Source of the DNA: Armatimonadota bacterium
GTDB taxonomy: Bacteria > Armatimonadota > SYMT01
DNA length: 64,000 nt
Reading direction: 5' to 3'
Assembly: GCA_041690135.1 (NCBI GenBank)
Contig: JAWLHY010000013.1
Coordinates: 84,921 to 148,920, forward strand
Position numbers and translations under genes: made by a program. Under the pieces are notes generated by a model. The model searched no databases. It was not told the origin of the DNA and saw only the letters and a program-made list of their open reading frames with translations. This document shows positions 6,504-28,563 of the stretch, piece after piece (position 1 is the stretch's first letter; each line of letters begins with the position of its first letter).

Positions 6504-6545
6504 TCCAAATTTGCAATTTGCAATCACCAATTTGCAATTTGAAAT
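6504..6545. repeat. degenerate 7-mer array (TTGCAAT)x6, right arm, inverted relative to 6031-6072
   Basis: tccaaat ttgcaat ttgcaat caccaat ttgcaat ttgaaat. Confidence 0.85.
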
Positions 6546-11433: not shown

Positions 11434-14400
11434 TTACGGCCAGTAACGCTCGTCGAGGTTGCAGGCGGGACAGCGGAACTGGGCGTCGAGGAGCTTCTGG
11501 ATGTCGCCGCCGAGCCAGCCGTGACAGCGGGGGCAGTAGTAGCCGTCGGTGGGATAGAACTCCGCGGAACGTCCCTCGATGGGCATTCCCTGCAGGCGGC
11601 GGAGGTGGGCGAACTCCGCCGGGTTCTGGAGCCCCTCGGTGCGGAACTCGAAGAACGAGCGGGTGAGCGCATCGTTGCGGCGGTAGGCCCGCCGGAGGAT
11701 GCGGTCAGCCTTGCGCAGGTCGAGGTCCGTAACGCCGAAGATCGTGAGCGATTTGACCGCCTGGTCGATCAGCCGGATCACGTGCGCGTGCCCCTGCGTG
11801 TCGCAGTAGGTGCTGAAGCGCATCGCGAGGGTGCGGCGCAGAAGCGTGTAGTCCGGCAGGAGCAGCTTGGCGACCGCGGCCGGGAAGGGCAGCGGCAGGG
11901 TGGCGCCGCGCTCCGTGGCATCCGTTCCGGTGGCGTAGAAGACGTAGAACTCTCCGGAAACGATCTGATACCAGCCCTCGGACGGGATCTCCCCACGTGT
12001 CGACGGCAGCCAGGGGAGAGCCTCATCGGCGGGACGGCCGAGCAGCAGTGTAAGAAGCCAGGCTTCCTCCGTCGCTTCGACCTGGCTGGGCGGCACCAGT
12101 GCGTCGATCCAATCGACGTCGCGGCGAGTGTGCCAGAACTTGAAGTCGGTATCCCCTTCCGCGCTCTGCAAGGCGTGGTTGTCGTACTGGTTGGCGCGGA
12201 CGACGCCCTCCATCTGACCCAGCGTGAAACCGTGCTTTTCGCGGATGATGAGCAGCCGGAACGGGTCGTCGCTGTCGATCAGGCCGCCGCGACGAAGCTC
12301 CATGCTGTTGCGGACCCGCTGCTCCACCCGCGCAATGGAAGGGCGCTGTCCCTCCCCGCTCCCCGTATCCATGAAGGCGAGGTAGGACTGCATCGGGTTC
12401 GCGCCCCGGACCCCAGCGAGCTGGTCGCTGACCTGGGCCGCGGAGACGCCGAGGCGCGGCTCGCTGGACTGAACGACGGTGTCGAGGTCGGCGTCGGCGG
12501 CCTTGTCGGCGATGTGGACCTGCTCGCGGAGCGGGGTGAACATGGCGCGGGCGCGGGTCTCGGCGGCGGCGCGCAGGTCGCCGGGGATCATGTCGCGGGC
12601 GCTCTGGATGCCGGGCCGTGGGTCGAAGGCCGCCTGTCCGTCGTCGCGGGTGAGCTCCTGGCGCAGCGAGTCGAGCGCGCGGAGCACTTCGCGCATGGCG
12701 GCGGCTTCTTTCTGCGCGTCGTCCCAGCCGGTGGCGGGCTCGTCCGGCCACCGCTGCTGCCGGAGCAGCTTGTAGTATTCCTCGGTTACGGTACCGCGCG
12801 GGGAAGGCGGCTCCGCGTCGAAGTAAACCTTTCCGTTCACGCTGGGCGACTGGGCCGCCAGCTCCTTCCAGGCACCTTCTAACTCGGTGGCTTCCTGCCC
12901 AAAAGCGGCCTGGATCTGGTCGAGGCGGCGCAGCAGCGGGGCAGTGAGCTTGCGGTACTGGTCCACCATCTCGCGGATGACGTCCTTGCGCTGGACGTGC
13001 GTGGCCGCCTGGATGCGCAGTTCCGTGTTAAGGTAGCTGTTGATCTGGCCGCTGGCCGTCTCCCAACTCTGGCGGAGGCGGTCCCGCTTGTTCCAGACCA
13101 GCGGGTTGTTCTGGACTTTCTCGATCTCGTCGAGCTGGCGGTTCAGGATGTCCCGCATCATCTCCGCGTCCTGCCGCTGCTCGGGGAGAGCGGTCTGCGC
13201 TTTCTCGGACCACTGCTCCAGGTCGGCGAGGAACTGCCGCGTGACGGCCGAGATGAGCCCCGGTCCGCCGGAGAGGCTGAAGAGGTACTGCTCCAGGAAC
13301 CGGTCGACGTCGCGACGGATGCTTTCCAGCAGCCGGGCGTGGTTGTTCTGGATGATCTGCGCCAGGGTCGGGAGGCTGGAGGCTCCGGCGGCCGGCGGGG
13401 TGACGGTCCCCGTCAGGGCCGTCTCCTGGGCGGTGAAGCGGGTATCGACTTCTCGCAGGAGTTGGCGGATCTGCTCCACTTTGGGGACCGCGCCCTCCGC
13501 CATTGGCTTGAAAGCCTCCTGAAAGAGGTGGGTGCTGACCTGGTCCGCGCCCTGGGTGAGGCGTTGGAGGAGGGCATCGAAGTCGGTGCCGCCCAGGAGT
13601 TGCAGCGCGGCGGAGAATTCATCCGAGTCGGTGCGGTGGCGGCACCAGCGCCCGTAGGCCCCGGCAAGGAGGCGGTTGGTGGCCGCCCGCTGGATGTGCT
13701 CGCCGGGATACTCCAGGGCCGCCACGCCCATGGTGCTGAAGAGCGGGCGCATGAAGCCGATGCTCTCGGAGCCCTCCATCTTCCCGAAGGCGTCCACGTC
13801 GCTGGCCGCGATCTCGAACCCGGCGGGGCCGACGGCCGCCGCCAGGTACTGGCCGATCATGGCGTTCAGGCGCTGGACGTCCTCTCCCGAGGGGCCCTGC
13901 GGCATCACTACGCGGCAGATGTCGTAGGGGCGCTCGGAGCGGACCTCCGGGTTGAGGAACTCCGGCAGCTTTTGCTTCCAGAGGGTGTTGTCGAGCTGGT
14001 AGTAGTTCAGCTCCTTGAGGGCATAGTAAGCGTTCTTCTTATAGCGGCGGGAGAGCGCATGGCTGAAGCCCGGGTGCGGAATGGTGAAGATCGCCTGGCG
14101 GCGCGCGCGGTCCTTGCTCCAAACGGCGGTGAGGTATCCCAGATCCGAACAGCCGCCGCTGCCGGTGCCGCCGCAAAGGGTGCCGACGACATAGACGACC
14201 GTTCCGCCCTCGTGGATCTTCACCGTGAGCCCCGCCTCGCCCAGGGAGTCCGCGATGTTCTGGGGCGTGAGCCGCTCCAGGTAAGCCAGGTCCTCGGTGA
14301 CGCGGCGACGGAGCCCCTCGTAGGTGCGGGGGTGGAAGAGGCAGAGACGCCCGAGCATCCGGCTGTTGCCCGCGCCGTCGGCCGGGTTGTTGATGTCGCG

Positions 14401-14688: not shown

Positions 14689-14691
14689 AAA

Positions 14692-16104
14692 CTAGCCTTC
14701 TCTGGAATAAATGAACTCCAGCCGCACAGGCGGCCGGGCGGAAGCGGCGGAAGCGACCCGGCAGACCAGGCGGTCTCCCGGCGCGAGGTTGAGCTGACGG
14801 CTGTTGCTGGCGGTAACGTTGATGCCCTTGAGCTCCAGGAAGCTGGTATCCCCTTCCGCCTGGACCTGCATCCGTCCCTTCTCATCCCATGATACTGCGG
14901 CGAGACGGGTGCCCGACCCATTTCCACCGGCCGGACCTTCCGTATCCTCTTTCAGCGTGGGGCCCGCGTCGCCATCCTGAACGAGAGCCCAGCGGCTTGC
15001 AGTGGTGAGGCCCTTGAGCGGCACGCGGGTTTCGTGCGGCGCGGCCCCGATCACCGCGGTAACAGAACCCGGGAGCGGGCGACCCTTCTTTACCGGCTCC
15101 GGCTTTTTCCCCTGCGCCGTGCCGGGCTTGCGTCGCATCGCCAGCACCGCCGCTATGATCCCGGCGAGAACGAGCAGACCGATCACCAGCGGCCACGGGA
15201 ACCCGCCGCCGCGCTCGCGCTCCACGGTCCGTTCCGTCGTGGTGCTGGTGTGGGTCTCGGTGCTGCTGCCTCCCGGCCCCGGTGTCGCGGCCTGCACCGG
15301 ATTGGGCAGCGTCTCGCTCGGAGCGGGACGGTCTGCCGGGGGCTGCCAGGTCTCCACGGGGAATCCGGGATAGCGCGCCGTGTTGGGTGTTCCCGGCAGC
15401 GGTTTCGCCTTCTGCGGGAAGAGCGCGGTGACGTCGATGTTCAGCGGCCCCGACTTCGACTGAGCGGTGAACGAATGCCGCACCGGCTGCCGGTAGTTGT
15501 AGGCCTTCAGCGCATCCTTCAGCAGGGGGTTATTGGCCCCGAACAGGGTGGCGCGCTGCCCAGTCGGCCCCTGGCTCTGGTTGGTGTTGGTGAGGAGCAG
15601 GACGAGGGTGCTGGGCGCCTCCTGCTTCGACACCACGTTGGTGAGCGTTTCGTAGAGCGCCCGCTCGGTATCGTGCCCGCCCCGGCTACCCGCCGCCGGT
15701 GCGTACGGGACGTCGTCCACGAAGGCAGCGCGGGTCTGTGGATCTTCCGTGAGCTTGATGCGGTCGCCCGTGTGCCAGAGCTTCATCTCCCAGCCGAGGG
15801 GCGTGACCTGGTCGCCGGGGGCCAGCCCGTTGTTGAGCAGCGAGAAGGCCAGGCGCCGCATAGCGATGGCGTGGACCGGGTCCGACCCGTAGTGGCCCGT
15901 GGAGAAGCCAACCACGAAGTGATAGCGCTCGTTCTCCAGGTCGCCGCCGCTGCGCCGGACCTCGTCTTTGAGCCAGCGGTCGAGCTCCGCGCGCGGGACC
16001 TGGGTAATGATGCGGTAGTCGTTGGGGTCGGGGGTCTGGGCGCGGGCGGCGGCTGGGGCGAGCAATACTGTGGCGAGGAGGGCGGAAGCAAGTCGGTGAT
16101 GCAT
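14692..16104 (-). CDS. single-pass membrane protein: signal peptide, degenerate vWA-like domain, Pro/Thr linker, TM helix, FHA-like cytoplasmic domain
   Basis: MHHRLASALLATVLLAPAAARA signal; LAPGDQV, DTERALYETL, LVLLLTN vWA-like strands; TM followed by RRK; LAPGDRL tail; stop 3 nt before the tubulin-like gene start. Confidence 0.6.
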   Translation of the reverse strand: MHHRLASALLATVLLAPAAARAQTPDPNDYRIITQVPRAELDRWLKDEVRRSGGDLENERYHFVVGFSTGHYGSDPVHAIAMRRLAFSLLNNGLAPGDQVTPLGWEMKLWHTGDRIKLTEDPQTRAAFVDDVPYAPAAGSRGGHDTERALYETLTNVVSKQEAPSTLVLLLTNTNQSQGPTGQRATLFGANNPLLKDALKAYNYRQPVRHSFTAQSKSGPLNIDVTALFPQKAKPLPGTPNTARYPGFPVETWQPPADRPAPSETLPNPVQAATPGPGGSSTETHTSTTTERTVERERGGGFPWPLVIGLLVLAGIIAAVLAMRRKPGTAQGKKPEPVKKGRPLPGSVTAVIGAAPHETRVPLKGLTTASRWALVQDGDAGPTLKEDTEGPAGGNGSGTRLAAVSWDEKGRMQVQAEGDTSFLELKGINVTASNSRQLNLAPGDRLVCRVASAASARPPVRLEFIYSREG

Positions 16105-16142
16105 GATGCATGATGCGTGATGCGTGATGCGTAATGCGTAAT
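16097..16142. repeat. 7-mer array (TGATGCR/TAATGCG)x6
   Basis: tgatgca tgatgca tgatgcg tgatgcg tgatgcg taatgcg. Confidence 0.9.
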
Positions 16143-16989
16143 CGGAACCGCCTTCGGCACGACGGGTGCGGTCGTCAGGGCATGCGGTGTTGGGAGTGAG
16201 AGGTGCGGTCTGTTCGGCTAGCACGCGCGTTACCCGGTTCCGTATTCGTTCGATCAGCATTTTCGGGTCCACTCCCCAACCCTGCTCTTCACCTGTTTCA
16301 CCGCGGCGCAGGACGCTCGCGAGTTTCCAACGCAGTACACCGCTGTATAGATACGCCTTCGAGGGGCTCCGGTACTTCTTGCTACGCGGATTAGGACCAG
16401 GATTACGATGAGGATGAGGATGGGAGTGCGGGGAAAGGGATGACGTTCGTTTCGCAATGTCCGGGGTTCGGCTTCGACACAGAGGGACACGAGAGGGACA
16501 CGAGAGGGCTACGAGAGGGAATACGGAGCCGGAATGGGAGAGGACCCCGAAACCGCATGACTCTCCGGGGCAAGCACGGATGGGAAGGGAAGGATGCAGT
16601 CCGTTGCCCAGAAGGCAAGTGCGGGGTACTGCCAGGTGGGAGCCCAGCGCTGGCTGCGGATCCTGTAAGGAGGCGCTGCGCGGTCCAACACGAAAACACG
16701 AAAAATCCCAGAGGGAGCCCTCCACTTTGGCTGGGTGGAGAACTTGGGCAGCGGTCGCAGGGGCGAGATCCGAGGTGATGCCTGGTTGGGCGGAACGGGA
16801 GGCGGAGACAAGGTCGCAAGGCGCCGATGCAATCGGCGAGTCCACACTGAGGGGCATGGCGGGTGTTGGTTTGGCAGGGCGGGAGACGGAGGAGATTGCG
16901 CGAGGGCTCGCGCACCTCGTCTGTGAGGGCGCAGAGTTGTGGGGCACGGGTGGCGTGATGTCCATTGGGCGCCCAGGGGTGGATCTCCG

Positions 16990-18861
16990 ATGACAGCCGT
17001 GAAAACCTGTGATTTGAACTGGCGGGTGGTGTTGCCCGGAGTGTACCTGTTTCCGGATAGCTGCAATGTATACGCGGTGGCGGGACCGGAAGGGCTGCTG
17101 ATCGTGAACGCTGGCACGGGGGCGTGGCTGGAGCACCTGGAGGAACTGCCGGGGCGGCCGGCGGCGCTGGCGTGCACGCATTTTTTCCGGGACCACTCCG
17201 CGGGGGCGGTGCGGGCGGCGGAACGGGGGATTCCGGTGTTCGTGCCGGAGGGCGACGAGGCGTTGTTTGCCGATCCCGTTCAGCACTTCCGGGAGCGGCA
17301 GACGTACATCATCTACGACAACCTCTGGAACCTCTTCGCGCCGATCGAGGCGACGCCGGTGGCTGGAGTGCTGCGGGACTACGAGCGGCGGACCCTGGCG
17401 GGGCTGGAGGTCGAAGTGATCCCGCTGCCGGGGGTGACCCTGATGCAGAGCGGGCTGGAACTGCGGCTGCCGGGGGACGGACGGAAGGTGGTGTTCTGCG
17501 GCGAGGCGATCCACTCGCCGGGGCGGCTGGCCCGAATCGCACCACTGCAGTACCAATACAACGACCTCTCGGGAGCCGTGAATTGCCACCACTCCGCGCA
17601 GGCGCTCCGGGACCGGCAGCCTGACGCGCTACTGCCGAGCCTGGGGAGTCCCATCCTGGAAAACCCGGATGGAGCCCTGGCGCAACTGCAGGACTCGCTT
17701 GGCGGGCTGTGTGCCGGCCGTCCCGAGGAATCGGCGGCGATCGCGAACCTGGCGGAGGCGCCGCTGGAGCGGGTGACGGACCACGTCTGGATGGCGCCGC
17801 AGTCGGAGGCGCTTTCGTGGTTCGTGATCAGCGAGTCGGGTAAGGCGCTGGTCCTGGACTACGGGTACAGCAAGCGCGGGACGATGCTGCAGGGGTACCC
17901 CACGCCGCAGCGGCGGCGGGCACTGCTCCACAGCCTCACGGCGCTCCGGCGGCAGTTCGGTATCGACCGGATTGATGTGGCGCTGCTGAGCCACTTCCAC
18001 GACGACCACGTGTGCGGGGTGCCGGTGCTGCAGCGGTTGTTCGGGACGGAGTGCTGGGCGTCGGAGGCGTTCGCGGACCTGCTGGAGCACCCGGAGGCGC
18101 ACTGTTTCCCCTGCGACTGGCCGACGCCGTGCCGGATCGACCGCCGGATCCCGGTGGACGGCTCGGTGCAGTGGGAGGAGTACACCTTCCACTTTGCCCC
18201 GATGAACGGCCACACGCGGTTCGCCGCCCTCATTGGGTTCGAGGCGGACGGCCGGCGGTTCGCCCACACTGGAGACCAGTACTTCTTCCAGAAAGGCGTG
18301 GGCGATTGGGAGAACAATCCCATCGCGCAGAACCACGTGTACCGGAACGGCGCACTGTTGGATGGCTACCGGCAGAGCGGCGAGTGGATGTGTCGCTGGC
18401 AGCCGGAGGTCGTGCTGTCCGGCCATCGGCCGGCGATGTTCACGGATGCCGCCTTCTTCCGGCGGATCACCGACTGGAGTGAGGAGTACGCGGCGCTGCA
18501 CCAGCAGGCGATGGTGTTGGGCGACGACGAGGCGCACTTCAACCTGGATAGCTGGGGCGGATGGATCTGGCCGTACCGGACGCACCTGCGGGAGCCGGGC
18601 CCGGCGCGGGTGTGGGTGACGGTCCGCAACCCCCTCCCCCACCCCGCGACACTCCAGGTCCGGCTGGCGGTCCCGCGCGGCTGGGAGGGAACGGGCGCCG
18701 AACTCCAGGCGGAGGCACGGGCGGAGGTGAGCTGCGAGTTGACTTTCACGCCGGGTGGACCTTGTCGCCGGCAACCGATGGCGGTGGAGTTGTGGGCGAA
18801 CGGGAGACCTTTTGGCCAGGTGGCGGAGGCTCAGGTCACCGTCGGGGGTGAGCGGTTTTGA
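16990..18861 (+). CDS. tandem metallo-beta-lactamase-fold hydrolase
   Basis: THFFRDH (degenerate) and SHFHDDH motifs; GHT, HTGD. Confidence 0.8.
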   Translation: MTAVKTCDLNWRVVLPGVYLFPDSCNVYAVAGPEGLLIVNAGTGAWLEHLEELPGRPAALACTHFFRDHSAGAVRAAERGIPVFVPEGDEALFADPVQHFRERQTYIIYDNLWNLFAPIEATPVAGVLRDYERRTLAGLEVEVIPLPGVTLMQSGLELRLPGDGRKVVFCGEAIHSPGRLARIAPLQYQYNDLSGAVNCHHSAQALRDRQPDALLPSLGSPILENPDGALAQLQDSLGGLCAGRPEESAAIANLAEAPLERVTDHVWMAPQSEALSWFVISESGKALVLDYGYSKRGTMLQGYPTPQRRRALLHSLTALRRQFGIDRIDVALLSHFHDDHVCGVPVLQRLFGTECWASEAFADLLEHPEAHCFPCDWPTPCRIDRRIPVDGSVQWEEYTFHFAPMNGHTRFAALIGFEADGRRFAHTGDQYFFQKGVGDWENNPIAQNHVYRNGALLDGYRQSGEWMCRWQPEVVLSGHRPAMFTDAAFFRRITDWSEEYAALHQQAMVLGDDEAHFNLDSWGGWIWPYRTHLREPGPARVWVTVRNPLPHPATLQVRLAVPRGWEGTGAELQAEARAEVSCELTFTPGGPCRRQPMAVELWANGRPFGQVAEAQVTVGGERF

Positions 18862-19015
18862 TCCGCAAGGGGGATCCTTCGCCCATACCGGCGGGCTTAC
18901 GACGCTCCACCCCTCGGGGCACAAGCCTCGCGTTTCGCTCGGGATGGCGTCCCCATAACAACGAGCTGTACTCAAGCGGTGAAAGCGTCAATCTGAATCG
19001 TCTGCAAGCTGTTCT

Positions 19016-19666
19016 CTATGCAGGACGACCGGCGGGCTCGGTGAGGCCATGTTCGAGGGCGTAGCGGATGAGCTCGGCCGTGGTCTCGACTTCGAGTTTT
19101 TCCAGGATGCGAGCGCGGTAGGTGCTGACGGTCTTCACGCTGACGCAGAGCTGGTTCCCGATTTCGGAGACGGTACGGCCGGTAGCCAGGAGGCGGAGCA
19201 CCTCGAACTCGCGGTTGGAGAGGGTTTCGTGACGTCGGTGGGCGGGCCGGCCGGCCACCTCGTCGGCGAGCAATTCGGCCAGGGTCGGGCTGATGTATCT
19301 TTTCCCGGAGGCCACCTGCCGGATGGCACGAGCCAGTTCTTCCGGTGCCGTTTCTTTGGTCATGTAGCCTGCCGCTCCGGACCGCAGGAGGCGGACTGCG
19401 AACTGGTCTTCCGGGTGCATGCTCAAGATCAACACCGGCAGGTCGGAGCGCTCGGACTTCAGCTCTCGCAATAGGTCCAGGCCGCTGCGGCCCGGCATGG
19501 TAATGTCGAGTACCAGAACATCACAGGGGTTGCGGATCATCAGTTGCAACAATTCCGCGGCGTTCGATGCCTCGCCGCAGACCTGGATGTCGGGTTCGCG
19601 CGAGAGGATCATCCGCACACCGCACCGCAGCAGGGCATGATCGTCGGCGATGATGGTGCGGATCAT
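19016..19666 (-). CDS. NarL/FixJ-family response regulator
   Basis: ADDH, LDITMP receiver; LSNREFEVL..KTVSTYR LuxR HTH. Confidence 0.95.
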   Translation of the reverse strand: MIRTIIADDHALLRCGVRMILSREPDIQVCGEASNAAELLQLMIRNPCDVLVLDITMPGRSGLDLLRELKSERSDLPVLILSMHPEDQFAVRLLRSGAAGYMTKETAPEELARAIRQVASGKRYISPTLAELLADEVAGRPAHRRHETLSNREFEVLRLLATGRTVSEIGNQLCVSVKTVSTYRARILEKLEVETTAELIRYALEHGLTEPAGRPA

Positions 19667-21120
19667 CCGGTGATCCCCCCATTCATAGTAGTTGCCAGAA
19701 GCGTCTCCTGTGAGTGTCTCTGGGTCGGGAGGCTCACCTGCACCCGGGTCCCACCTTCCGGATGCAAACCGATCTCCAACTGGCCGCCAACCGCAATAGC
19801 CCTTTCCCTCATTCCAACAATTCCCAGCCCCACTGATCCGGAGAGGGTTTCCTCACTGATTCCCCGGCCATCGTCGTGTATCTCCAGTGTGACGGTCTCC
19901 GAATCCGAAGCGAGACGCACGTCCACCCGCGTGGCGCGCGCGTGGCGCAGGATATTAGTGAGCGATTCCTGGAGGATTCGGAACAACGCGGTCTCTGCCT
20001 CCTTGTCCAATTCCAGGCGCGAACGCTCGGCGTTCAGCACGCAGTGGATCCCCGTCTGTCCGGTGAACGCCTCGGCCTGCCATTCGATGGCGGCGGCGAG
20101 CCCCAGCTCATCGAGCACGCTGGGCCGCAGATCCGCGGCGATGCGCCGGATACTCCGAACGCTGGCGTCCAAAGTTCGATTAAGCTGGGTGACGGTCTCC
20201 ACAGCCCGTTCGGGCACTTCCCCTTTCAGCCAGGCCAGGCCCATCTTGAGGAAGGAAAGGGACTGACCGAGCTCGTCGTGGATCTCCCGCGCGATGCGGG
20301 TCCGCTCCTCTTCCCGCACGGACTGGAGATGGACCGAAAGTTCTCGCAGTTTGCTTTCCGAAGCCCGCAACTGTTCTTCTGCCCTCCGCCGCTCCGTGAT
20401 GTCCCGGGTGATCAGGGCGTATCCGGTCAACTCACCACTTTCCCGTTCGAGCGGAGTGATGACGGAATTGGCCCAGAAGGGTTCGCCGTCCCGTTTGCGG
20501 TGCCAGGTTTCCCACTCGAACCGCCCGCCTTCCCTGGCCATCGCGAGCGCATTGTCCAGGCCGAGCCGTATCGCGTCATCCCACCGGAAGAATTGAAGGT
20601 AGGATCGCCCCAACACCTCCTCCGCGGTATAGCCCGTGATCCGTTCTGCTCCCGGCATCCAGTGCACCACGGCTCCCGTCCGGTCCAGGCTGGCAATTGC
20701 ATAATCCCGGATACCGTCGAGCAACCGGTGGAACCGGGCCTCGGTGCGGACCAATTCCCATCCGGCCTCCCTCGTTCGACACTGCTGTCGGTGTAGGGCC
20801 TCATTCAACACGCTGATAATGCCGCCGGCGCTGACGAAAATGCAGAGACTAACGGCTTCCTTGACACTGGGGAAATCGAAGGCCGTGGGTGGATCCACCA
20901 GGTAATAGTGGCCGGCGGTCGCCCCCAACACCGTGGCGAGCAGGCCAGGCCCGAGGCCGCCGTACCACGCGCTTACCATCACTGCAGGAGCGAAGGTGAT
21001 CAGCAGGGCGGAGTCACCCACCACCGGATCCACGAAGTGGCGCAGCAACAGGGACACCATGGGTAGGATGATGGCCAGACCGTAGCGTCGACGCCAGGGA
21101 CGAAAGGGTGGGGAGTGCAT
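19663..21120 (-). CDS. sensor histidine kinase (DUF4118-like TM, PAS, HisKA_3, HATPase)
   Basis: RIAREIHDELGQ, QESLTNILRH, DDGRG, GLGIVGMRER; 4-nt overlap with the regulator. Confidence 0.92.
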   Translation of the reverse strand: MHSPPFRPWRRRYGLAIILPMVSLLLRHFVDPVVGDSALLITFAPAVMVSAWYGGLGPGLLATVLGATAGHYYLVDPPTAFDFPSVKEAVSLCIFVSAGGIISVLNEALHRQQCRTREAGWELVRTEARFHRLLDGIRDYAIASLDRTGAVVHWMPGAERITGYTAEEVLGRSYLQFFRWDDAIRLGLDNALAMAREGGRFEWETWHRKRDGEPFWANSVITPLERESGELTGYALITRDITERRRAEEQLRASESKLRELSVHLQSVREEERTRIAREIHDELGQSLSFLKMGLAWLKGEVPERAVETVTQLNRTLDASVRSIRRIAADLRPSVLDELGLAAAIEWQAEAFTGQTGIHCVLNAERSRLELDKEAETALFRILQESLTNILRHARATRVDVRLASDSETVTLEIHDDGRGISEETLSGSVGLGIVGMRERAIAVGGQLEIGLHPEGGTRVQVSLPTQRHSQETLLATTMNGGITG

Positions 21121-21532
21121 GGTCTGTTGTGCGAGCGGGAAGTGTGAGTGGTGAGGTGCAAAGTGCGAGTTGCGGACTCCGCGCCCAACGTGCACCTCCG
21201 AGCTGGCGCGCATTGCCAGGGGACGCGAACGCCAGGTCCGGACACATCCCGCGAGTTGGGTAATGACTTGGACAAATGAAGGGATGCGGCAGCGGGCACT
21301 TCGCGAAAGCTCCGGCATCGGCGAAACGGGAATCGAGGCGCCGCCACACCATGAAAATCTACCCACGGTGGGCGTGTGTTAGGCATGGTTAGGGAATAAG
21401 TATCGCGCCTGTTTGGGGAGTGGGTGCCTGGCCCGAGAGCATGCTTGTAGGAGAAAACTGACAGGAGAGTTGGCGGGAGGACGACAGGAGAGCACCTACG
21501 CTCGTTGCATTCTCCTCGTGCGGAGGAGAAAC

Positions 21533-22936
21533 ATGCATCTACTGGATTTGCTTTGCTGCCCTTCTTGTGGGGGATCTCTGGGCTGGGAGCGGCGGTGCCC
21601 GGGGGATCACCAGGAAATCTACGGCGTCCTGCGCTGCGGCTGCCATGCCTATCCGGTCGTGGCGGGCATCCCCATTATGGTTCGCGATGCGGAAGAGTTG
21701 CTGGAGGCGCTGCGGGGAGACCGCTGCCGGGAGGCGCTCTTGAGAGCGCTCAATACGCGGCCGAAGTCGAACTTGCAAAAAATCGTCGAACGCTCGGTAC
21801 TCGGAAGGGTCCCCGTCGGGCAGCGATGGCTCCGCAGCCGCCTGGAGAAGCGCCGCTTTGCGCGAGCCCACCATCTGCGTGCGGTGGTGGAAGCAGGTGC
21901 GCCCTTCCGCGAGCTGTTCAATGCGGCCTATGCCTATCCGGGTAAACCCCAGGTTGCGGACTACTTCTACTACAAGTTCGGTCAGCCCCGTCACCTGGGC
22001 GCACTGGCCTGGACCCCCACCCTGGTGGAAGCCCCCGGCCCGGTCCTGGACTTCGCGTGCGGTCCAGGCCACCTGACCTGGACGCTTGCGAAGAACGGCG
22101 CGGCCGGCCGTGTTGTGGGGGCCGATCTCTACTTCAAATCCGTTTTCCTGGCATCGCGCCTTGCGGGGCCGGACGCGGCTTTCGTCTGCTGCAATGCCGA
22201 CAACGGGCTGCCTTTCCGCGACGGAGCCTTTGGAGCGATCATCGCAGCCGACGCCTTGCATGTGCTGCCGTATCCGGCACCCTGCCTGCGGGAACTCCAT
22301 CGCTCACTGAACGATGACGGCTTGCTGGTTGTTACATCCGTTCCGAACAGCCAGGCGCGAAATCCGGTCGCCCATTTGGGCCATCCGCCGGCACCGGCAA
22401 ATTGGAGCATCCTGTTGAAGGGTATGCAAACGCGTCTGCTATGCAGCCGGGAGATCGTCAACCGGTATCTGTGCGGCGAGGGCCCGAATACAACGGAGGC
22501 CGTCAGTGCCACGGAGTGTCTCGATCTTCCGATGTACACGGCGGTTGCATCGCGAGGGTCTCACTGGTTCCAGCCTTCCAGGCCGTTCGAGCGCTGGCCC
22601 CACGCTTGCGGGAACCTGGCCATCAACCCCCTCTATCGCCGGACTCAAGGAGGTGAGTACCGCTTGACAGTGCCTTCGCCGGACTACGATGCGGAGAATG
22701 CGCTGGCCTGGACCTACATGCCGGGCTCAGTGAAGCTGCCGCCGGAAGGCTTCACGGAAGGTGAGTTCGCCAGGCTGGTGGCGCAGTGGGTGCTGGTAGG
22801 TGTGCCGGACAATTATGGGGCGGAACCTTGCGCGGGCCTCTCCGTGGAGGGTGCGACGTATCCGGGACTTTCATCAGGGGTCTGCGGGGCACCAGGTCTT
22901 TCCGGGGCGGTCGCGCTTGGCACTCTCCGCAGCTAA
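21533..22936 (+). CDS. SAM-dependent methyltransferase with N-terminal Trm112-like Zn domain
   Basis: LCCPSC..LRCGC..YPVVAGIP; VLDFACGPG; LPFRDGAF. Confidence 0.8.
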   Translation: MHLLDLLCCPSCGGSLGWERRCPGDHQEIYGVLRCGCHAYPVVAGIPIMVRDAEELLEALRGDRCREALLRALNTRPKSNLQKIVERSVLGRVPVGQRWLRSRLEKRRFARAHHLRAVVEAGAPFRELFNAAYAYPGKPQVADYFYYKFGQPRHLGALAWTPTLVEAPGPVLDFACGPGHLTWTLAKNGAAGRVVGADLYFKSVFLASRLAGPDAAFVCCNADNGLPFRDGAFGAIIAADALHVLPYPAPCLRELHRSLNDDGLLVVTSVPNSQARNPVAHLGHPPAPANWSILLKGMQTRLLCSREIVNRYLCGEGPNTTEAVSATECLDLPMYTAVASRGSHWFQPSRPFERWPHACGNLAINPLYRRTQGGEYRLTVPSPDYDAENALAWTYMPGSVKLPPEGFTEGEFARLVAQWVLVGVPDNYGAEPCAGLSVEGATYPGLSSGVCGAPGLSGAVALGTLRS

Positions 22937-22980
22937 AAGCCGCTATCGGGAGTGGTGCCGGCGGCAAGAGTGTGGGGGGC

Positions 22981-23022
22981 AATTGCCGATTGAGAATTGC
23001 AAATTGCAGATTTCAAATTGTC
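22981..23022. repeat. 7-mer array of the ATTGCAA family
   Basis: aattgcc gattgag aattgca aattgca gatttca aattgtc; contains the stop of ORF 23013-24470. Confidence 0.85.
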
Positions 23023-24470
23023 GGTTGGCGGAGGCGAATCACGCCGCGGGTGTGGGCAATGTAGAGATCGTTACCCACCGGGAGCAGGGCGCGGGGCTCG
23101 AGATCGATTTGCCGCCAGAGGAGGTCCTGGGCGCCGGAAGACATGCGCACGGCAGTGAGGGTGGCGAAACCGCCCTCGACGGTCAGGGCGAGAAAGCGTG
23201 GTTCGCCGTCGGGCGCCGAAGCGAGCGCCCCGTCGACCCAGCGCCCCGGCGGTCGAAGAGCCTCGCAGAGGCGTTCGCCGGAGCGTGGATGGAAGGCGAT
23301 GAGGCGGTCCGCGGCGACCACCACCAGTTGCGAGTGGTCGAACACGCCCCGCAACGGTCCGGCCCCGACCGGCGCGCCAGGGCCGGCCGCTCCCTCTTCC
23401 GGGATCGCCAGTGTGAGATAGACCTGGCCCCGGCGCTCCCGGACTAAACGGGCGCCTCTTTCGAACGCCCAGGTCCAGAGGAAGCCGTCCTCCGGTGCCG
23501 CCACCACGTCGGCCTCGCCCGTTGCACAGCGGAGCCGCCACACGGCCCCGGTGGCAGCCGGCCAGTAGAGCATGTCGTCGCGGAGGGCCATGCGCCCCCC
23601 TTGGGCCAGCGCCGCTTCCGCGGGAAGGGCGACGGGCTGCGGTGGGGAGAGGTCGCCGGTCGCCTGGACACGCGCAATTCGCAACTCAGGGCTCCCCTCG
23701 CCGGAAGTCCCGCGGGACCAGCCGGCCCACCAGGCGGGGCCGGCGACCTGGGCCAGGGGGAGGCCCCCTTCCAGGGCATAGGTATCCCCCCGATGGCGGA
23801 GGCCGACCTGCACGAAACAGCGCTCCATCGCAAGGACGGCACACGCCCCTGCCACGGTTGCCCGTTCGATGAACGGTACTCCGGCTGCCGGTACTCCGGT
23901 GGACCCCAGCGGGCACTGCCAGGCGGCTCCGGCGTCGCCCGCGGGTGCGGCGAGGGGCCGGCCCGCCTCATCGACACGGACCCAACCCAGGACCGGATCG
24001 GGCGAGAGCAGGCTGTTGCCCGCCCATGCAAACAGGAGACCGTGCGCCACGAAGGCGGTGTGGAGGGGTTCCTCGCAGGGCCACTCTTCCGCAACCGGCG
24101 CACGGTACTCCGGGTGGGCGCGGTCCCAGATCGGTGGCCAACTCCAGACGACCGCCGTGCCGCGAGCATCCCAGCGACGCCCCGTGTGTTGGGGAAGCAC
24201 CGGCAGGGCGCGGGAGGCGCACTGGGGGTCGGGGCAGAGCCGAATGCCGGGGAGTAGCCAGCGCCCGCATCGCTCGCAGGCATACAGTAGAGCCTCGCAT
24301 GCCTCGCACCACGGCTGCTGCGTAGTGGTCTCATCCGTCATCGACGCCAGCCACCGGGGAGCGCCGCCGCAGGAAGGACAGGGAGGACGGACCTCCACGC
24401 CGCACTGGGTGCAGAAGAATGCTTCGGGGTGCAGCCGGACGCGACAGGCGGGACAGGTCTCAGGCGTCAA
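23013..24470 (-). CDS. multi-zinc-ribbon protein with beta-rich (propeller-like) C-terminus
   Basis: Six Cys pairs (CPAC, CTQC, CPSC, CEAC, CERC, CPDPQC); Trp-rich beta strands; TTGA overlap with upstream gene. Confidence 0.7.
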   Translation of the reverse strand: MTPETCPACRVRLHPEAFFCTQCGVEVRPPCPSCGGAPRWLASMTDETTTQQPWCEACEALLYACERCGRWLLPGIRLCPDPQCASRALPVLPQHTGRRWDARGTAVVWSWPPIWDRAHPEYRAPVAEEWPCEEPLHTAFVAHGLLFAWAGNSLLSPDPVLGWVRVDEAGRPLAAPAGDAGAAWQCPLGSTGVPAAGVPFIERATVAGACAVLAMERCFVQVGLRHRGDTYALEGGLPLAQVAGPAWWAGWSRGTSGEGSPELRIARVQATGDLSPPQPVALPAEAALAQGGRMALRDDMLYWPAATGAVWRLRCATGEADVVAAPEDGFLWTWAFERGARLVRERRGQVYLTLAIPEEGAAGPGAPVGAGPLRGVFDHSQLVVVAADRLIAFHPRSGERLCEALRPPGRWVDGALASAPDGEPRFLALTVEGGFATLTAVRMSSGAQDLLWRQIDLEPRALLPVGNDLYIAHTRGVIRLRQPTI

Positions 24471-25873
24471 TAGTTTTCTCCGGCCTCATAGCGGACCACG
24501 CGCGCCGGAACGAGCACTTCCGAACCCCGGCGCAGCCCCGGCGTCTCCAGGCGGGCCACCGTGCCCCATTCGTGCGGGTGTGCCGAGCGGCGTTCACCTG
24601 CAATCTCCATCGTCTCCGCGCAGAAGGGCGAGCCTACTCCCGGCTGGAGTACCTCTACCTGCAACACTTCTTCGAGCCAGTGGAGCAACTCCGGTCGGAT
24701 TTGCTGGAACAGTTCGCCCCATGCCGGCGGAAGGTCGGCTCTCCAGAGTCCCCCGCCTGCCCCCAGCAACGGGAGCAACGGCGCCAGGGCCAGGTTCAAC
24801 TCGTAAGCACTGGGAACACTTCCCCGTTCCACCTGGGCGCAGATCTTCGATAGCCCGCGGAGGACCTCTCCGGCAGTGCCGCCGTCTCCCTCCGGGGTCC
24901 GGCGACCGAGGAGGCGGAGCCAGTCCGGAAATGGATGAGGATTGGCCTGCGGCAGATTAGGACTGGCCTGCGGCCGATTAAGATGAAGATTAGGATTAGG
25001 ATAAGGACGTTCGGGGTCGGGGTGGGTAGCGGGGGTGGACTGCTGCGGAATGAGTGTGAGAGTAGGAGTAGGACTGGCGTGAGGCTGATCTGGATTCCGA
25101 TCGTGATCGTGATCACGATCACGATCACGAGTGGGATTGGTCGAGGGGGCGGAGGGCTGGAGGCTTTCCGGTTGGATGCTACCTGGCTGGCGGGTAACGA
25201 GGGCGGGGAGAAGGAGTTGCCCCTGCCAGCGGAAGCCCCGCCGGTGGCAGCGGACGATCTTTCCTGCCGGGACGCCGCTTACGGATTCCTCCCCCACGAT
25301 GGAGTGCGCTTCCGTGATCGGATCGCCGGGTTTGGGCCCGATCCACTCAATGCCCATCCGCCTCAGCGTGTTCAGGGCCTCGTACCGCGCCTCCCCCAGG
25401 GTGGTTTGGACCACTTCTTCCTCGGGACCGGAGGCCGTAATTTCGTCGTCCCTATCCAGCGCGGTCACGGCGTCGATGAAGACGGATGGGTAGCCGGTGA
25501 ACCAGCGCTCGAGTTCGCCTTCGTGCCGCAGCAGCCGGAGCAATTCCGCCGCCTCGCTCACGATCGGCTGATAGGGGCTGTCAGGGCCCAGGAGTCCCTG
25601 AAGGAACTGTAGGCGCGCCGCTAGGGGCGCCGACTGCCACACCTGCTCGAGAAGCGAGGAGCCGGGCGTAGAATTCGGGGCGGGCGAGGGCACGGCTCCT
25701 GTGTCGCTCCCGCGCGCGGAACGGACCTCTTCCCGAAGGGCACGTAACTCCTCCTCCAGCACACGGATCCGCGGCTCCGACGCGGAGGCGGACTCTAGAG
25801 CCGTCAACCGGCGCTGCAGCGCGGAGATCTCCCTGGCCCAGTCGTAGCCGGGGGTGTGCGATGAGTCGCTCAA
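24467..25873 (-). CDS. protein with N-terminal coiled coil and two GrpE-like domains
   Basis: LRRMGIEWI..PGDP..H.IV....GKIV..RRGF....LLPALV and LQVEVL.P..G.PF....M.....GTV....PGL....VLVPARV; TTG start overlaps the Hsp70-like stop. Confidence 0.7.
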   Translation of the reverse strand: MSDSSHTPGYDWAREISALQRRLTALESASASEPRIRVLEEELRALREEVRSARGSDTGAVPSPAPNSTPGSSLLEQVWQSAPLAARLQFLQGLLGPDSPYQPIVSEAAELLRLLRHEGELERWFTGYPSVFIDAVTALDRDDEITASGPEEEVVQTTLGEARYEALNTLRRMGIEWIGPKPGDPITEAHSIVGEESVSGVPAGKIVRCHRRGFRWQGQLLLPALVTRQPGSIQPESLQPSAPSTNPTRDRDRDHDHDRNPDQPHASPTPTLTLIPQQSTPATHPDPERPYPNPNLHLNRPQASPNLPQANPHPFPDWLRLLGRRTPEGDGGTAGEVLRGLSKICAQVERGSVPSAYELNLALAPLLPLLGAGGGLWRADLPPAWGELFQQIRPELLHWLEEVLQVEVLQPGVGSPFCAETMEIAGERRSAHPHEWGTVARLETPGLRRGSEVLVPARVVRYEAGENY

Positions 25874-28563
25874 TCCTCTCCCTCCACCAGGGCAAAGCGC
25901 CACTGATCGCGCCGGTCCGGGCCGACCTGGAGTTCCGCAACCTGACCCTTTTCACGGCTGGTTGTCAGGCGCAAAGTGGCCTCCTGAGGGACCGGGGTGT
26001 CATTCCGGTAAAAGGATCGGCAGACAATCACTGGTTCCGGCAGATCGCTCCCCTCGGCGACGAGATAGGCGTTGAGTTCTTCCCCCGGATCGACGATCTC
26101 CGTGAAGAACTTCGGGGAAGCCACGCCGACTGGAACGAGGGCAGCCCCTTCCGGAATGATTACCTCCTCTACGGTGCCGATCCGCAGCAACAACGTTACA
26201 GGCGAAGGCGCGTAGAGTTGCTCGTCGTACCACACGGCTCCCTCCACCACGGCGTTCAGTCGTTCCGCGATACGGGCGTCGCTCTGGGAATTGGGATCGT
26301 TCTCCTGTGGAGCCAGCGGGAAGGAGCGGGAAAAGTGCTGCCGCACGAACGGGTCGATGTTGGTGCCGCCCACGTAGAAGACGCGGCGGACTTCGGTGCT
26401 GCGGGGGCGCGTTGTGAAGGATGAAAGATGAGGGATGAAGGATGAATTGGAGCCGTCATTCACGGCTTCCGCCGGTGCTGAGGAGGGGGAATTATCCGAT
26501 GCTCCAGCAGTTGACGGCGAACTTGAACCGAGAGCCTCCCGGTCCTGCAATTCTGCTCCACTGGCTTTGCCTCCCAACTCTGGAGATCGCACGCCGGCCC
26601 CCTGATCCCTGGCCCCTGACCCCTGACCCCTGGCCTCTGACCCCTGGCCCCTAACCCCTGCCCCCCCATGGCGGTTGATGCGTTCGACCAGTTCCTCGGC
26701 CACGGGGCGGAGGGTGGGCGCGAGGATGTGTTCGTCGAAGTGGGCGTGGACCAGGTAAATGCCCTGCAGGTCGGGGCGATTGGGGAAGGGCAGCACCTCG
26801 CCCGCTTCCCGTGGCTGGCCGGGAGTCCGGTTCAGGTATTGGGTGCTCGCCCGCGCAAACCTCTCCTTCATCTGGCGGCAGATCAGGACAAAATCGCGCA
26901 TCTGGGCGGCCGCCAGGTTTCGGTCTGCCGGGGGGCGCCAGAGCGAGTCCGGTACCGGGCGTCCCCCTTCCCCTTCGAGCAGCGGCGCGGCATTGCGCAT
27001 CAGCGCATGGGTCAGGGCCCAGTCGAGGACATTGCCGCCGACCTGCCGGTCGCGGACGCCATAGTATTGGAGCGCCGTCATCACCGGGTTGTCCGGGGCG
27101 AGGTGGAGGGCGTAGCTTCCGGTAATATCGAGGGAAACCCGCCCCGCTTCGAGACGAACCCGGGCCAGCGCCACGTCGGTGGTGCCTCCACCGCTGTCCA
27201 CAATGGCCAGCGCCGTCCCATCCGGTAGGGCCAGCAGCTCATCGCGCCGGCGAGCCACGCCGATGGCCGCGGCCACGGGCTCGTGGATAAAAGTCACCTG
27301 TCGCTCGGCAATCCCACAGCTCCCCAGGGCGGAGAGCAGCGCTGCCTCGTACCGCTTTCCCTCCACATCCCCCTCGTTGGCGTCTAGAACCGGCCGGCAG
27401 AGGACGTAGCGGACGTCGAGATGGGCGCGGTTCACCGGGTGCTCCGGGTCGGCCGTGCGCAGGTACTCGTCCAGGCGGTGGATGATGCGCTCGAAGTACC
27501 GGCGGACCAGCTCGGCGTTGGTCCACTCCGTCCGGACCTGGGTGTACCGTTCGTCGCCCTCACGGAGATACGTCTTGAGGTTCATCACCGGAACCTCTTC
27601 CGCCGTCATCCGGCTGGCGGCGATGTAGTCGGCGGCGTCCGAGCCCCAGCGGAAGGTGCGATCGCTGCGATGCAGGACCATCTGCGTTGGAAAGCGGGCC
27701 GCCTGGCCGCGGTCGCCGATGGCGTCCACCGTACCGGCGGGCTTCGCGGGTACCAGGGTTCGGCGCCACCGCACCCGGATGCCGGTGTTTCGCGTGCCGA
27801 AATCGATCGCCACCACCAGGTCGCAACCTTTCTCCGGTCGCGAGCTGCGCATCCGGTAAATCGGTAGGCGCTCTGCTTCGGGTCCGGCGCGCCACACGGT
27901 GAGCGGACCCTCGGTTCGGCCGCCCACCGGCTCCATGGCGAGCTGGAGCGATCCACCCGGAGAGAGAAGCAGCGGGTTGGGACCGAGGGGCACACCCAAC
28001 GCAGTGACCTTGCAGTCGGCGGGCGTCTCGCTCTGGAAGGTCCGCTCTACCTCCGAGTCGTTCCATATCCGGACGAACTGGCGGCGCACTTCGGGAGGAA
28101 ACAGGACGGCGGGGCTGCCCACGACCCACCGCTCCGCCCGGACTTTGACCGTACCGGCCAGGCGGAGAGCCCTTTCCCGCCAACTCCGGCGCTCCCACCA
28201 CTGCTCTCGAAGCCCGTCGTCGCTGCGGACGCGCAGGAGCCCCAAAATCTCTTCACCGGCCAGGTGCCGGAATTCGAAGGCCTGAACCTGGCCGGGAGCG
28301 ACCCGTCGAAAGGGAGCCCCTTCCAGGCGGAGCCCACGCGCCGCCGTGGGGTCTACTTCCGCACGGACGGATGCTACTCCGATGTTCCTTGCGACGAGGT
28401 AGAAACCGTCGCCGTCCCGGACCCACACAGCTCCACTTCCCGGATTTCGGTCGGCAGAGAACGACCACTCGATTCGACCGGCCGGGCGGCCGCAGCGGGC
28501 ACAAAAGATATCGGCGGGGTCAAGGGCCAAACCGCATTCGGTACAGGCGGGGGATTCGGGCAT
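25870..28563 (-). CDS. atypical Hsp70/actin-fold ATPase with N-terminal zinc ribbon and beta-rich domains
   Basis: IDFGTRNT, EPVAAA, DSGGGTTD, VGGNVLD, YVGG, AVVEGA; CTEC..FCARC; no canonical substrate-binding domain. Confidence 0.85.
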   Translation of the reverse strand: MPESPACTECGLALDPADIFCARCGRPAGRIEWSFSADRNPGSGAVWVRDGDGFYLVARNIGVASVRAEVDPTAARGLRLEGAPFRRVAPGQVQAFEFRHLAGEEILGLLRVRSDDGLREQWWERRSWRERALRLAGTVKVRAERWVVGSPAVLFPPEVRRQFVRIWNDSEVERTFQSETPADCKVTALGVPLGPNPLLLSPGGSLQLAMEPVGGRTEGPLTVWRAGPEAERLPIYRMRSSRPEKGCDLVVAIDFGTRNTGIRVRWRRTLVPAKPAGTVDAIGDRGQAARFPTQMVLHRSDRTFRWGSDAADYIAASRMTAEEVPVMNLKTYLREGDERYTQVRTEWTNAELVRRYFERIIHRLDEYLRTADPEHPVNRAHLDVRYVLCRPVLDANEGDVEGKRYEAALLSALGSCGIAERQVTFIHEPVAAAIGVARRRDELLALPDGTALAIVDSGGGTTDVALARVRLEAGRVSLDITGSYALHLAPDNPVMTALQYYGVRDRQVGGNVLDWALTHALMRNAAPLLEGEGGRPVPDSLWRPPADRNLAAAQMRDFVLICRQMKERFARASTQYLNRTPGQPREAGEVLPFPNRPDLQGIYLVHAHFDEHILAPTLRPVAEELVERINRHGGAGVRGQGSEARGQGSGARDQGAGVRSPELGGKASGAELQDREALGSSSPSTAGASDNSPSSAPAEAVNDGSNSSFIPHLSSFTTRPRSTEVRRVFYVGGTNIDPFVRQHFSRSFPLAPQENDPNSQSDARIAERLNAVVEGAVWYDEQLYAPSPVTLLLRIGTVEEVIIPEGAALVPVGVASPKFFTEIVDPGEELNAYLVAEGSDLPEPVIVCRSFYRNDTPVPQEATLRLTTSREKGQVAELQVGPDRRDQWRFALVEGED

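Follow-up and report, generated by a model that had tools for sequence, protein, structure and literature searches.

A probable five-gene operon in Armatimonadota linking a tubulin-like GTPase and a membrane vWA protein to an Hsp70-like ATPase and a GrpE-like factor

Five minus-strand genes in a 64-kb stretch of DNA from an Armatimonadota bacterium (contig JAWLHY010000013.1; the whole stretch of 64,000 nucleotides is called the window, and all coordinates are window positions) encode an Hsp70-like ATPase, a GrpE-like protein, a Zn-ribbon beta-propeller protein, a membrane protein with von Willebrand factor A (vWA)-like and forkhead-associated (FHA)-like domains, and a tubulin-like GTPase of the FtsZl1/Tubulin_2 family. 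These genes recur side by side in many genomes, and are for this reason linked far beyond chance. On balance, we lean towards viewing them as one system, encoded by an operon which is conserved in Armatimonadota and is cut here at the propeller/vWA junction, and which would direct an envelope-linked, chaperone-controlled FtsZl1 assembly. The five genes are:

25870-28563, minus strand: Hsp70-like ATPase gene (open reading frame call, 897 aa)
24467-25903, minus strand: GrpE-like gene (open reading frame call, at most 478 aa)
23013-24470, minus strand: Zn-ribbon beta-propeller gene (open reading frame call, 485 aa, TTG start)
14692-16104, minus strand: vWA/FHA membrane protein gene (inside a longer open frame, 470 aa)
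11434-14688, minus strand: tubulin-like (FtsZl1/Tubulin_2) gene (open reading frame call, 1084 aa)

The original prediction had arranged these genes in two tightly coupled blocks, A (Hsp70-like, GrpE-like, propeller) and B (vWA, tubulin), and open reading frame (ORF) calling located each of them at the coordinates first noted, intact and without internal stops. The gene junctions are also as claimed. A TTGA at 25873-25870 is made up by the stop of the Hsp70-like gene and an in-frame TTG of the GrpE-like frame, which may start either at this codon (TTG 25873) or at GTG 25903; a second TTGA, at 24470-24467, combines the GrpE-like stop with the TTG start of the propeller gene; 3 nt separate the vWA stop (14692) from the tubulin ATG (14688). 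CxxC pairs reside, as predicted, in three of the five proteins (Hsp70-like, propeller, tubulin), and are missing in the GrpE-like and vWA-like proteins. A pattern scan detected no Walker A motif in any of the five, and the four proteins other than the vWA protein have neither a transmembrane (TM) helix nor a signal-like N-terminus.

The linkage of the five genes was monitored in other genomes, fetched loci being denoted by L-numbers and genomes by G-numbers. When one genome of each species was scanned with a profile, 52 loci were obtained, 36 of which (L008-L043) contain a long relative of the Hsp70-like protein; L009 lies on the same contig as L001, and L025 on the same as L006. Among the 36 loci, the tubulin gene is present in 20, the contig ends first in 13, and the gene is absent in 3, counts which describe a pattern and are not a statistical test, because loci and genomes partly overlap and relatives are not independent. 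At least 7 kb downstream are devoid of a Tubulin_2-like gene in L010, L017 and L026. The order Hsp70, GrpE, propeller, vWA, tubulin, uninterrupted and on the same strand, is found in L012, L013, L014, L015, L019 and L021. L002 features the same gene order without the Hsp70 gene, and in L027, L042 and L006 the order is kept, a small additional ORF preceding the tubulin gene. Overlaps of 4 nt mark the GrpE/propeller junction in L002, L012-L015, L019, L027 and L042, and the propeller/vWA junction, the one broken in the window, in L012, L015 and L042. The five-gene order recurs in Chthonomonadales, in other Armatimonadota, and in the relative L021, which has a GC content of 34% (the window has a G+C content of about 67%). 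By the names given to close homologues, the 9.1-Mb genome of the window is itself assigned to the order Chthonomonadales. In Fimbriimonadales and Abditibacteriales relatives, tblastn found the Hsp70-like and tubulin genes, and the propeller in most loci; the genes occupying the places of GrpE and vWA mostly gave no match. Upon all-against-all clustering of the ORFs of 31 loci and the window, only these five families, antisense shadow ORFs aside, occur in at least 11 loci, and no sixth widely conserved family was found. The window proteins share 48-67% identity with their orthologues.

The phylum was sampled with an even set of 301 Armatimonadota genomes representing 159 genera. The Hsp70-like profile matched 32 of these genomes, spread over 27 genera, and Tubulin_2 matched 109. 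Crossing the two tables by hand, Tubulin_2 lies on the same contig within 12 kb in 22 of the 32 Hsp70-like genomes, on another contig in 9, and is missing in 1; the 9 genomes are mostly fragmented assemblies, but G164 has only 10 contigs. The expectation that both blocks co-localise elsewhere thus agrees with 20 of the 36 loci and with 22 of the 32 genomes (within 12 kb), and the five genes proved contiguous and co-directional in other Armatimonadota. The further claim of one operon split by an insertion is sustained by the 4-nt overlaps found in relatives at the broken junction, and by the lineage-specific nature of the intervening genes. Judged by gene order, the cluster is conserved across the phylum and is undergoing rearrangement within the family to which the window belongs.

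Some variation around the cluster was observed. Between the vWA and tubulin genes, more distant forms of the operon have one additional small ORF, of 128-169 aa and without a Pfam match (L042:15956-16342, L027:9847-10356, L035:15930-16430, L039:16223-16669 and L033:4276-4680), where the window has the 3-nt gap. Hsp70-like homologues 43-55% identical occur in metagenome-assembled genomes (MAGs) labelled Actinomycetota or Bacillota (L008, L010, L017), representing either mis-binned contigs or gene transfer. In four loci (L042:6378-8608, L040, L033:10476-12954 and L005:6669-9049) the system, or its vWA+tubulin paralogue, is adjoined by two genes, one for a MotA/ExbB-like protein (about 500 aa, including a long coiled coil) and one for a protein of the OmpA family (about 240 aa), a pair which we take to resemble the stator of Zorya-type defence.

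The protein identities set out in the original prediction all held upon closer inspection, and are taken up here one by one. The 1084-aa protein is a tubulin-like GTPase by its match to Pfam PF13809 (E 2.7e-39, 135.9 bits vs. a cut-off of 27; residues 11-344, profile positions 1-354 of 356) and by its invariant GTP loops. The N-terminal tubulin-like domain (11-344) is followed by a long C-terminal region and by a C-terminal Zn ribbon formed by C1052, C1055, C1073 and C1076, of which C1052 and C1073 are nearly invariant. The GTP loop CGGTGSGG is a variant of the GGGTG(S/T)G signature, and residues G14, G16, G19, G173, G174, T175, S177 and G178 are invariant in 16 homologues. The same genome encodes a second Tubulin_2 protein, 1428 aa in length, which carries a fused AAA_22 P-loop ATPase domain at its C-terminus (L064:10059-14345). 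The neighbours of other Tubulin_2 subfamilies of the phylum (L060-L063) are mostly devoid of Pfam domains.

The Hsp70-like protein is made up, in this order, by a Zn ribbon (CxxC pairs C7/C10 and C21/C24), a beta-rich region of about 200 aa, a nucleotide-binding domain (NBD) of the actin/Hsp70 fold, a low-complexity insert and a beta-rich C-terminal region. Single-sequence searches of Pfam and NCBIfam gave weak MreB/chaperone matches. When an alignment of 16 Hsp70-like sequences (A1) was used as a profile against the PDB, DnaK nucleotide-binding domains scored best (E 2.6e-6), profile columns 416-531 being aligned to DnaK 159-267 and, in a second stretch, columns 626-738 to DnaK 298-402; MreB scored weaker (E 0.0043). 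Residues D254-x-G256-T257, E428-P429, D456-x-GGGTT (458-462) and V731-G732-G733 are invariant in A1; the phosphate-1, phosphate-2 and adenosine motifs are conserved. As the DxGT, EP, DxGGGTT and VGG motifs are invariant, the 897-aa protein looks like an Hsp70-type ATPase, and is predicted to be active. Residues 28-245 gave weak immunoglobulin-like leads in the ESM Atlas (score up to 0.81), and such a fold for the beta-rich region before the NBD is a lead only. A substrate-binding domain (SBD) or a helical lid was sought with the A1 profile in the PDB, where no match was found beyond the NBD; the C-terminal beta-rich 120 residues have an SBD-beta-like pattern by eye only. No DnaJ Pfam match, and hence no J-domain protein, was found among the cluster genes scanned. 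The family is rare, counting 88 representative clusters (E at most 1e-30) among 1.84 billion; at E at most 1e-10 the representatives number 212.

The database copy of the Hsp70-like protein is 852 aa long, or 95% of the ORF, and C21 and C24 are invariant in homologues. The N-terminal CxxC...CxxC, in the stretch 28429-28563, is conserved in homologues, and this argues for the ATG at 28563 being the true start. An array of 9.6 CCCCTGA heptamers (26599-26665) resides inside the Hsp70-like coding region, where it matches a Gly/Gln/Ser/Ala-rich low-complexity insert (A1 columns about 760-860) which most homologues lack; from the sequence, heptamer expansion seems to generate disordered protein segments in frame.

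The GrpE-like protein consists of two GrpE-like modules joined by a Pro/Asn/Asp/His-rich low-complexity linker, encoded by 21-nt and 6-nt repeats at 24934-25130. Its double-GrpE nature is borne out by Pfam, by orthologue matches, by module self-alignment and by the PDB profile search. The Pfam GrpE model matches the window protein at residues 176-236, in the first module, with 30.8 bits vs. a cut-off of 25.8. Among orthologues, L021 scores 58.8 bits (two stretches, E 7e-16), L012 34.0 bits (C-terminal module) and L013 28.6 bits; the distant L042, L027 and L033 are below the GrpE cut-off, and no Pfam match was obtained for L039, L030, L035 and L043. Modules 1 and 2 of the window protein match each other by BLASTP (E 0.006), and five of the seven PDB matches of a profile of GrpE-like sequences (A4) are GrpE structures (best E 8.4e-4).

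The propeller protein, predicted as a multi-Zn-ribbon beta-rich protein, has CxxC motifs at 6, 20, 31, 55 and 65 and CPDPQC at 79, which make up three N-terminal Zn ribbons; the Pfam model DZR gives 26.2 bits, slightly below its cut-off. The AlphaFold2 (AF2) model obtained from a 19-sequence alignment is all-beta (predicted local distance difference test, pLDDT, 87.1; predicted template modelling score, pTM, 0.88). Foldseek matched it to BamB, WD40 and designed 8-bladed propellers (E 1.7e-8, probability 1.00), and about 32 strands in the model suggest 7-8 blades. Prediction of a complex of the propeller with the FHA-like tail of the vWA protein (residues 338-470) gave no answer, both runs, made without controls, scoring 0.00.

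The membrane protein comprises a signal-like N-terminus, a vWA domain (about 56-235), a Pro-rich linker, a TM helix (about 299-326) and an FHA-like domain (about 344-468). Support for its start at 16104 (MHHRLAS..., signal-peptide-like) comes from the N-termini of 10 homologues, which, aligned with the window protein, form A2 (11 sequences). Both predicted folds emerge from structural alignment of the AF2 model (pLDDT 82.2) by VIA-align. The region 56-235 matches the vWA domain of CLCA1 (Z 10.3, root-mean-square deviation [rmsd] 3.3 A, 138 residues aligned) and the bacterial vWA structure 4fx5 (Z 9.6), the top of the list being dominated by vWA and integrin I-domains. Residues 344-468 match FHA-1 of M. 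tuberculosis Rv1747 with a Z of 8.2, a value close to the background of 7-8 stated for VIA-align (rmsd 3.3 A, 89 of 98 residues aligned). FHA rows were returned by Foldseek with probability 0.80-0.98 and E above 0.01, and the whole vWA/FHA model gave no Foldseek match at E at most 0.001. Pfam matched none of the 11 family members, and the A2 profile found nothing meaningful among PDB sequences; the ESM feature neighbours of the protein are vWA and FHA+vWA clusters. A signal-like N-terminus, combined with just one TM helix that separates the vWA from the FHA-like domain, should place the former outside the cytoplasm and the latter within it.

Taken as one system, the five proteins may work as follows. 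The membrane protein, the only one of the five, would have its vWA domain exposed on the outside, where it could be a sensor or an anchor, and reach the cytoplasm through its FHA-like domain. FtsZl1 would build a GTP-dependent assembly at the site of the membrane protein, which the Hsp70-like ATPase, cycled by its own GrpE-like factor, would load, remodel or dismantle; the Hsp70/GrpE pair could in this way be a threshold or reset device. The propeller may be an adaptor, and the Zn ribbons carried by three of the proteins may be common docking modules. The cluster has no conserved nuclease, protease, pore or other enzyme effector, and the output would therefore be the assembly itself. The role is envisaged as an envelope-linked response and, the distribution being patchy, a part in conflict or stress is likelier than one in housekeeping; both this distribution and the MotA/ExbB-OmpA neighbours of four loci lean to a conflict or envelope-stress role. 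A more elaborate version, which we deem rather unlikely, has the extracellular vWA sensor trigger the FtsZl1 polymer via the FHA-like tail, with an Hsp70/GrpE pair, docked by way of Zn ribbons and the propeller adaptor, setting the threshold and resetting the polymer, in immune or envelope surveillance without the DO-GTPase/GAP1 core of related systems. If true, the effector would be a cytoskeletal polymer, not an enzyme, and the DO-GTPase/GAP1 core thought to organise such modules would be dispensable.

Several data weigh against a single envelope-linked system with a conflict or stress role. In G003 the propeller/vWA junction is intact, and the Hsp70-like gene is found on a contig other than that of the remaining four. 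G006, a 94% complete genome, carries the orthologous tubulin gene alone, neither an Hsp70-like nor an orthologous vWA gene being found with the window queries. The Hsp70-like and Tubulin_2 genes reside on different contigs in G164, and in a Chthonomonas-labelled MAG (L016:9980-13915) the propeller gene comes directly after the Hsp70-like gene, with no GrpE gene between. The Hsp70-like gene is missing in 77 of the 109 Tubulin_2-positive genomes, so that the Tubulin_2 family as such has no need of it. In the vWA domain, the metal ion-dependent adhesion site (MIDAS) pattern DxSxS...T...D is not conserved: 11 of 11 sequences lack Asp at the first position and, after the strand 62-68, G-F-S-T-G or A-F-[SA]-T-G replaces the expected DxSxS. 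Canonical FHA domains bind phosphothreonine through Arg, Ser, His and Asn residues; inspecting A2 by eye, only a Ser and a PGD turn recur, Arg and His vary, and no kinase is encoded in the locus beside the FHA-like domain. The five proteins gave no meaningful matches in PADLOC-DB 2.0, the sole row being a Cas6 model (E 0.0094). The absence of such matches and the housekeeping neighbours lean away from a conflict role, and the locus is not a defence island, since the genes flanking it in the window are housekeeping genes.

The same single system could have a housekeeping cytoskeletal or membrane-remodelling role, in cell shape, envelope growth, vesicles or appendages, and none in conflicts. Membrane remodelling is what Makarova and Koonin (PMC2875224) predicted for FtsZl1 operons. 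The lack of a conserved enzymatic effector and of PADLOC matches, and the housekeeping neighbours in the window, fit such a role, as does the apparent age of the system, whose gene order persists across orders between which Hsp70-like identity drops to about 25-30%. Yet the Hsp70-like gene is patchily distributed (32 of 301 genomes, 27 of 159 genera), the cluster has been repeatedly rearranged or lost within one family, and four loci adjoin the MotA/ExbB-coiled-coil and OmpA pair, with its presumed likeness to the Zorya stator; a pure housekeeping role is therefore considered possible, though not probable. The split system might also be, in the genome of the window, a decaying remnant the halves of which no longer cooperate. 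Genes on both strands of the insertion make one transcript impossible, the closest relative, G006, seems to retain the tubulin gene only, and the Hsp70-like protein has a repeat-derived low-complexity insert absent from most homologues. However, the five ORFs are intact and keep 48-67% identity to orthologues, catalytic and Zn-binding residues are in place, and G001 likewise tolerates a different insertion at the propeller/vWA junction, which makes decay improbable.

Blocks A and B could finally be two independent systems which are often neighbours. They lie 6.9 kb apart in the window and on different contigs in 9 of the 32 genomes, and the tubulin/vWA and HSP70/GrpE themes have been called non-overlapping (Kaur et al., PMC7159879). 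Against this, both blocks are found in 20 of the 23 loci with enough flank, 4-nt overlaps span the A/B junction in three loci, Tubulin_2 is present in 31 of the 32 Hsp70-like-positive genomes vs. 109 of 301 overall, and L033, G203, G267 and G288 keep the linkage in a permuted order. By synteny, the two-system reading is largely refuted, and we regard it as very improbable. The view of one conserved operon, interrupted in the window, is the one retained in what follows.

The intervening DNA, and the repeat arrays found at its edges, are:

16105-23012, both strands: intervening 6.9 kb, outside the system (gene content by Pfam)
within 16939-18861, plus strand: hydrolase of the metallo-beta-lactamase (MBL) fold (Pfam)
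19016-19666, minus strand: LuxR-type response regulator (Pfam)
19663-21366, minus strand: PAS histidine kinase (Pfam)
21413-22936, plus strand: S-adenosylmethionine (SAM) methyltransferase (Pfam)
16096-16139, no strand assigned: heptamer array, GTGATGC x6.3, overlapping the vWA start codon
22981-23020, no strand assigned: imperfect AATTGCA heptamer array (x3.7 at 22995-23020), at and after the propeller stop codon

The four genes, located on both strands, are unrelated to the system, as had been supposed. The GC content is 0.62-0.64 at 19000-22500 vs. 0.66-0.72 in the flanks, and no close counterpart of the histidine kinase and of the methyltransferase was found in five genomes of the same family. 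Relatives have at the propeller/vWA junction either nothing or other genes. The intervening 6.9 kb are lineage-specific genes cutting the operon into two transcription units, a single transcript being no longer possible because the insertion has genes on both strands. In G001, which belongs to a related genus, a different insertion is found at the same junction, made up by three co-directional genes (L001:7724-10598) for sugar modification, encoding a PglD-like acetyltransferase, a DegT aminotransferase and a GT2 glycosyltransferase.

The 7-mer arrays which had been noted at each edge of the 6.9 kb are both present, but do not mark the insertion. Period-7 arrays of at least 3 copies number 15 in the 64-kb window, the two edge arrays included, and arrays with many different units are scattered along it (for example at 6508, 28720, 31569, 33216 and 52606), a feature reminiscent of the cyanobacterial STRR repeats. 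Insertion scars were thus ruled out: the units differ between the two edges, and arrays of this kind are a window-wide feature.

The genes flanking the system in the window are housekeeping genes by Pfam (trpF-like, amidase, HflX). An Rfam scan of the whole window gave no matches, and a promoter and terminator scan gave a number of sites not above that of shuffled sequences. Block A, sought in sequencing runs, had one DNA match, in a soil metagenome (share 0.06), no RNA run being listed. No match to the Hsp70-like protein was found by tblastn in plasmids.

Within the tubulin/FtsZ superfamily, no branch is more diverged than that of the FtsZl1/Tubulin_2 proteins. The literature search retrieved no experimental function reported for them since their description in 2010. 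In the system described here, a tubulin-like GTPase has an Hsp70-type ATPase and an exchange factor of its own as partners in a compact, fixed set of five proteins, with one membrane anchor and no accessory enzymes. This compact composition makes FtsZl1 polymerisation, and its control, directly testable in vitro.

Several known systems share parts with the one in the window. As in the DnaK-GrpE cycle, the motifs of an Hsp70-type NBD are kept, and an adjacent, translationally coupled gene passes the GrpE cut-off. Unlike in DnaK, the NBD of the Hsp70-like protein is preceded by a Zn ribbon at the N-terminus and by about 200 additional residues, and no helical lid was detected; unlike GrpE, the GrpE-like protein is internally duplicated, with a long low-complexity linker, and in contrast to the DnaK cycle the cluster has no J-domain protein. 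The set of vWA, FHA and Zn-ribbon folds is the same as in TerY-P triads and in ArnA/ArnB of Sulfolobus, and ArnB-type vWA structures are among the VIA-align matches (8s05_B, Z 8.9; 5a8j_A, Z 8.2). A functional relation to these modules would be one by analogy. The locus differs from them in lacking a kinase or PP2C phosphatase, in having the vWA domain exported and TM-linked to the FHA-like domain, and in the degenerate MIDAS. TerY-P modules are described in PMC11090510, the CoCoNuT paper, which in the text available reports unrelated Hsp70-like fusions with degenerate motifs. In the corresponding text of a 2023 survey (PMC9871819), Tubulin_2 proteins are treated as an outgroup only.

The closest known arrangement of block B is that of the FtsZl1 operons with vWA proteins, predicted to encode membrane-remodelling complexes (Makarova and Koonin 2010, PMC2875224). 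According to the main text of that paper, these operons encode a protein about 1050-1100 aa long, in which a diverged FtsZ/tubulin GTPase domain at the N-terminus precedes a long C-terminal region, an adjoining secreted or membrane vWA protein, and other proteins without recognisable domains. The 1084 aa of the window tubulin fit this size, and a vWA-fold gene lies 3 nt upstream. The frequent partners of FtsZl1 in these operons are protein kinases, a diverged P-loop GTPase and OmpA proteins (PMC2875224); their place is taken in the window by an Hsp70-like ATPase, a GrpE-like factor and a Zn-ribbon propeller. The MIDAS is intact in most of the vWA partners described there, and degenerate in the window. 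The terms Hsp70, DnaK and GrpE do not occur in the main text of PMC2875224, the Additional files 5 and 6 of which may list such neighbourhoods.

In the DO-GTPase/GAP1-N2 conflict systems (Kaur et al. 2020, PMC7159879), three themes called non-overlapping include tubulin+vWA and HSP70+GrpE, both described as assembly-forming modules. The accessible text of that paper depicts the first as a tubulin with a C-terminal helical region and a membrane vWA protein, with an extracellular vWA or beta-strand-rich domain, and the second as HSP70 and GrpE, HSP70 being at times without a peptide-binding domain; the window proteins match both. Zn ribbons are likewise common in those systems, for which membrane action and regulated cytoskeleton-like assemblies are predicted (PMC7159879). 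They are defined, however, by DO-GTPase and GAP1, with FNIII-repeat components, and are found mainly in Actinobacteria and Firmicutes; the main text of PMC7159879 contains neither 'armatimonad' nor 'Chthonomonas', and its source data may list neighbourhoods. Membership of the window system in this class was ruled out, as the five proteins have no Walker A motif and no sixth family is conserved, a verdict which is based on pattern and clustering at the locus and is compatible with a very diverged copy of the DO-GTPase elsewhere in the genome.

The original prediction knew of no described system with this combination. This stands for the five-part set, of which the literature search found no description, the supplements of PMC2875224 and PMC7159879 possibly holding such neighbourhoods; it does not stand for the parts, tubulin+vWA (PMC2875224) and HSP70+GrpE (PMC7159879) having each been described as linked modules. 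The parts and their pairwise links are thus known from comparative genomics, and what is new is a five-part Armatimonadota operon without a P-loop GTPase. In this operon the two themes are joined, none of the five proteins being a P-loop GTPase, and by their sequences the tubulin/vWA and HSP70/GrpE modules, which are alternatives in DO-GTPase systems, may be able to work together without that GTPase core.

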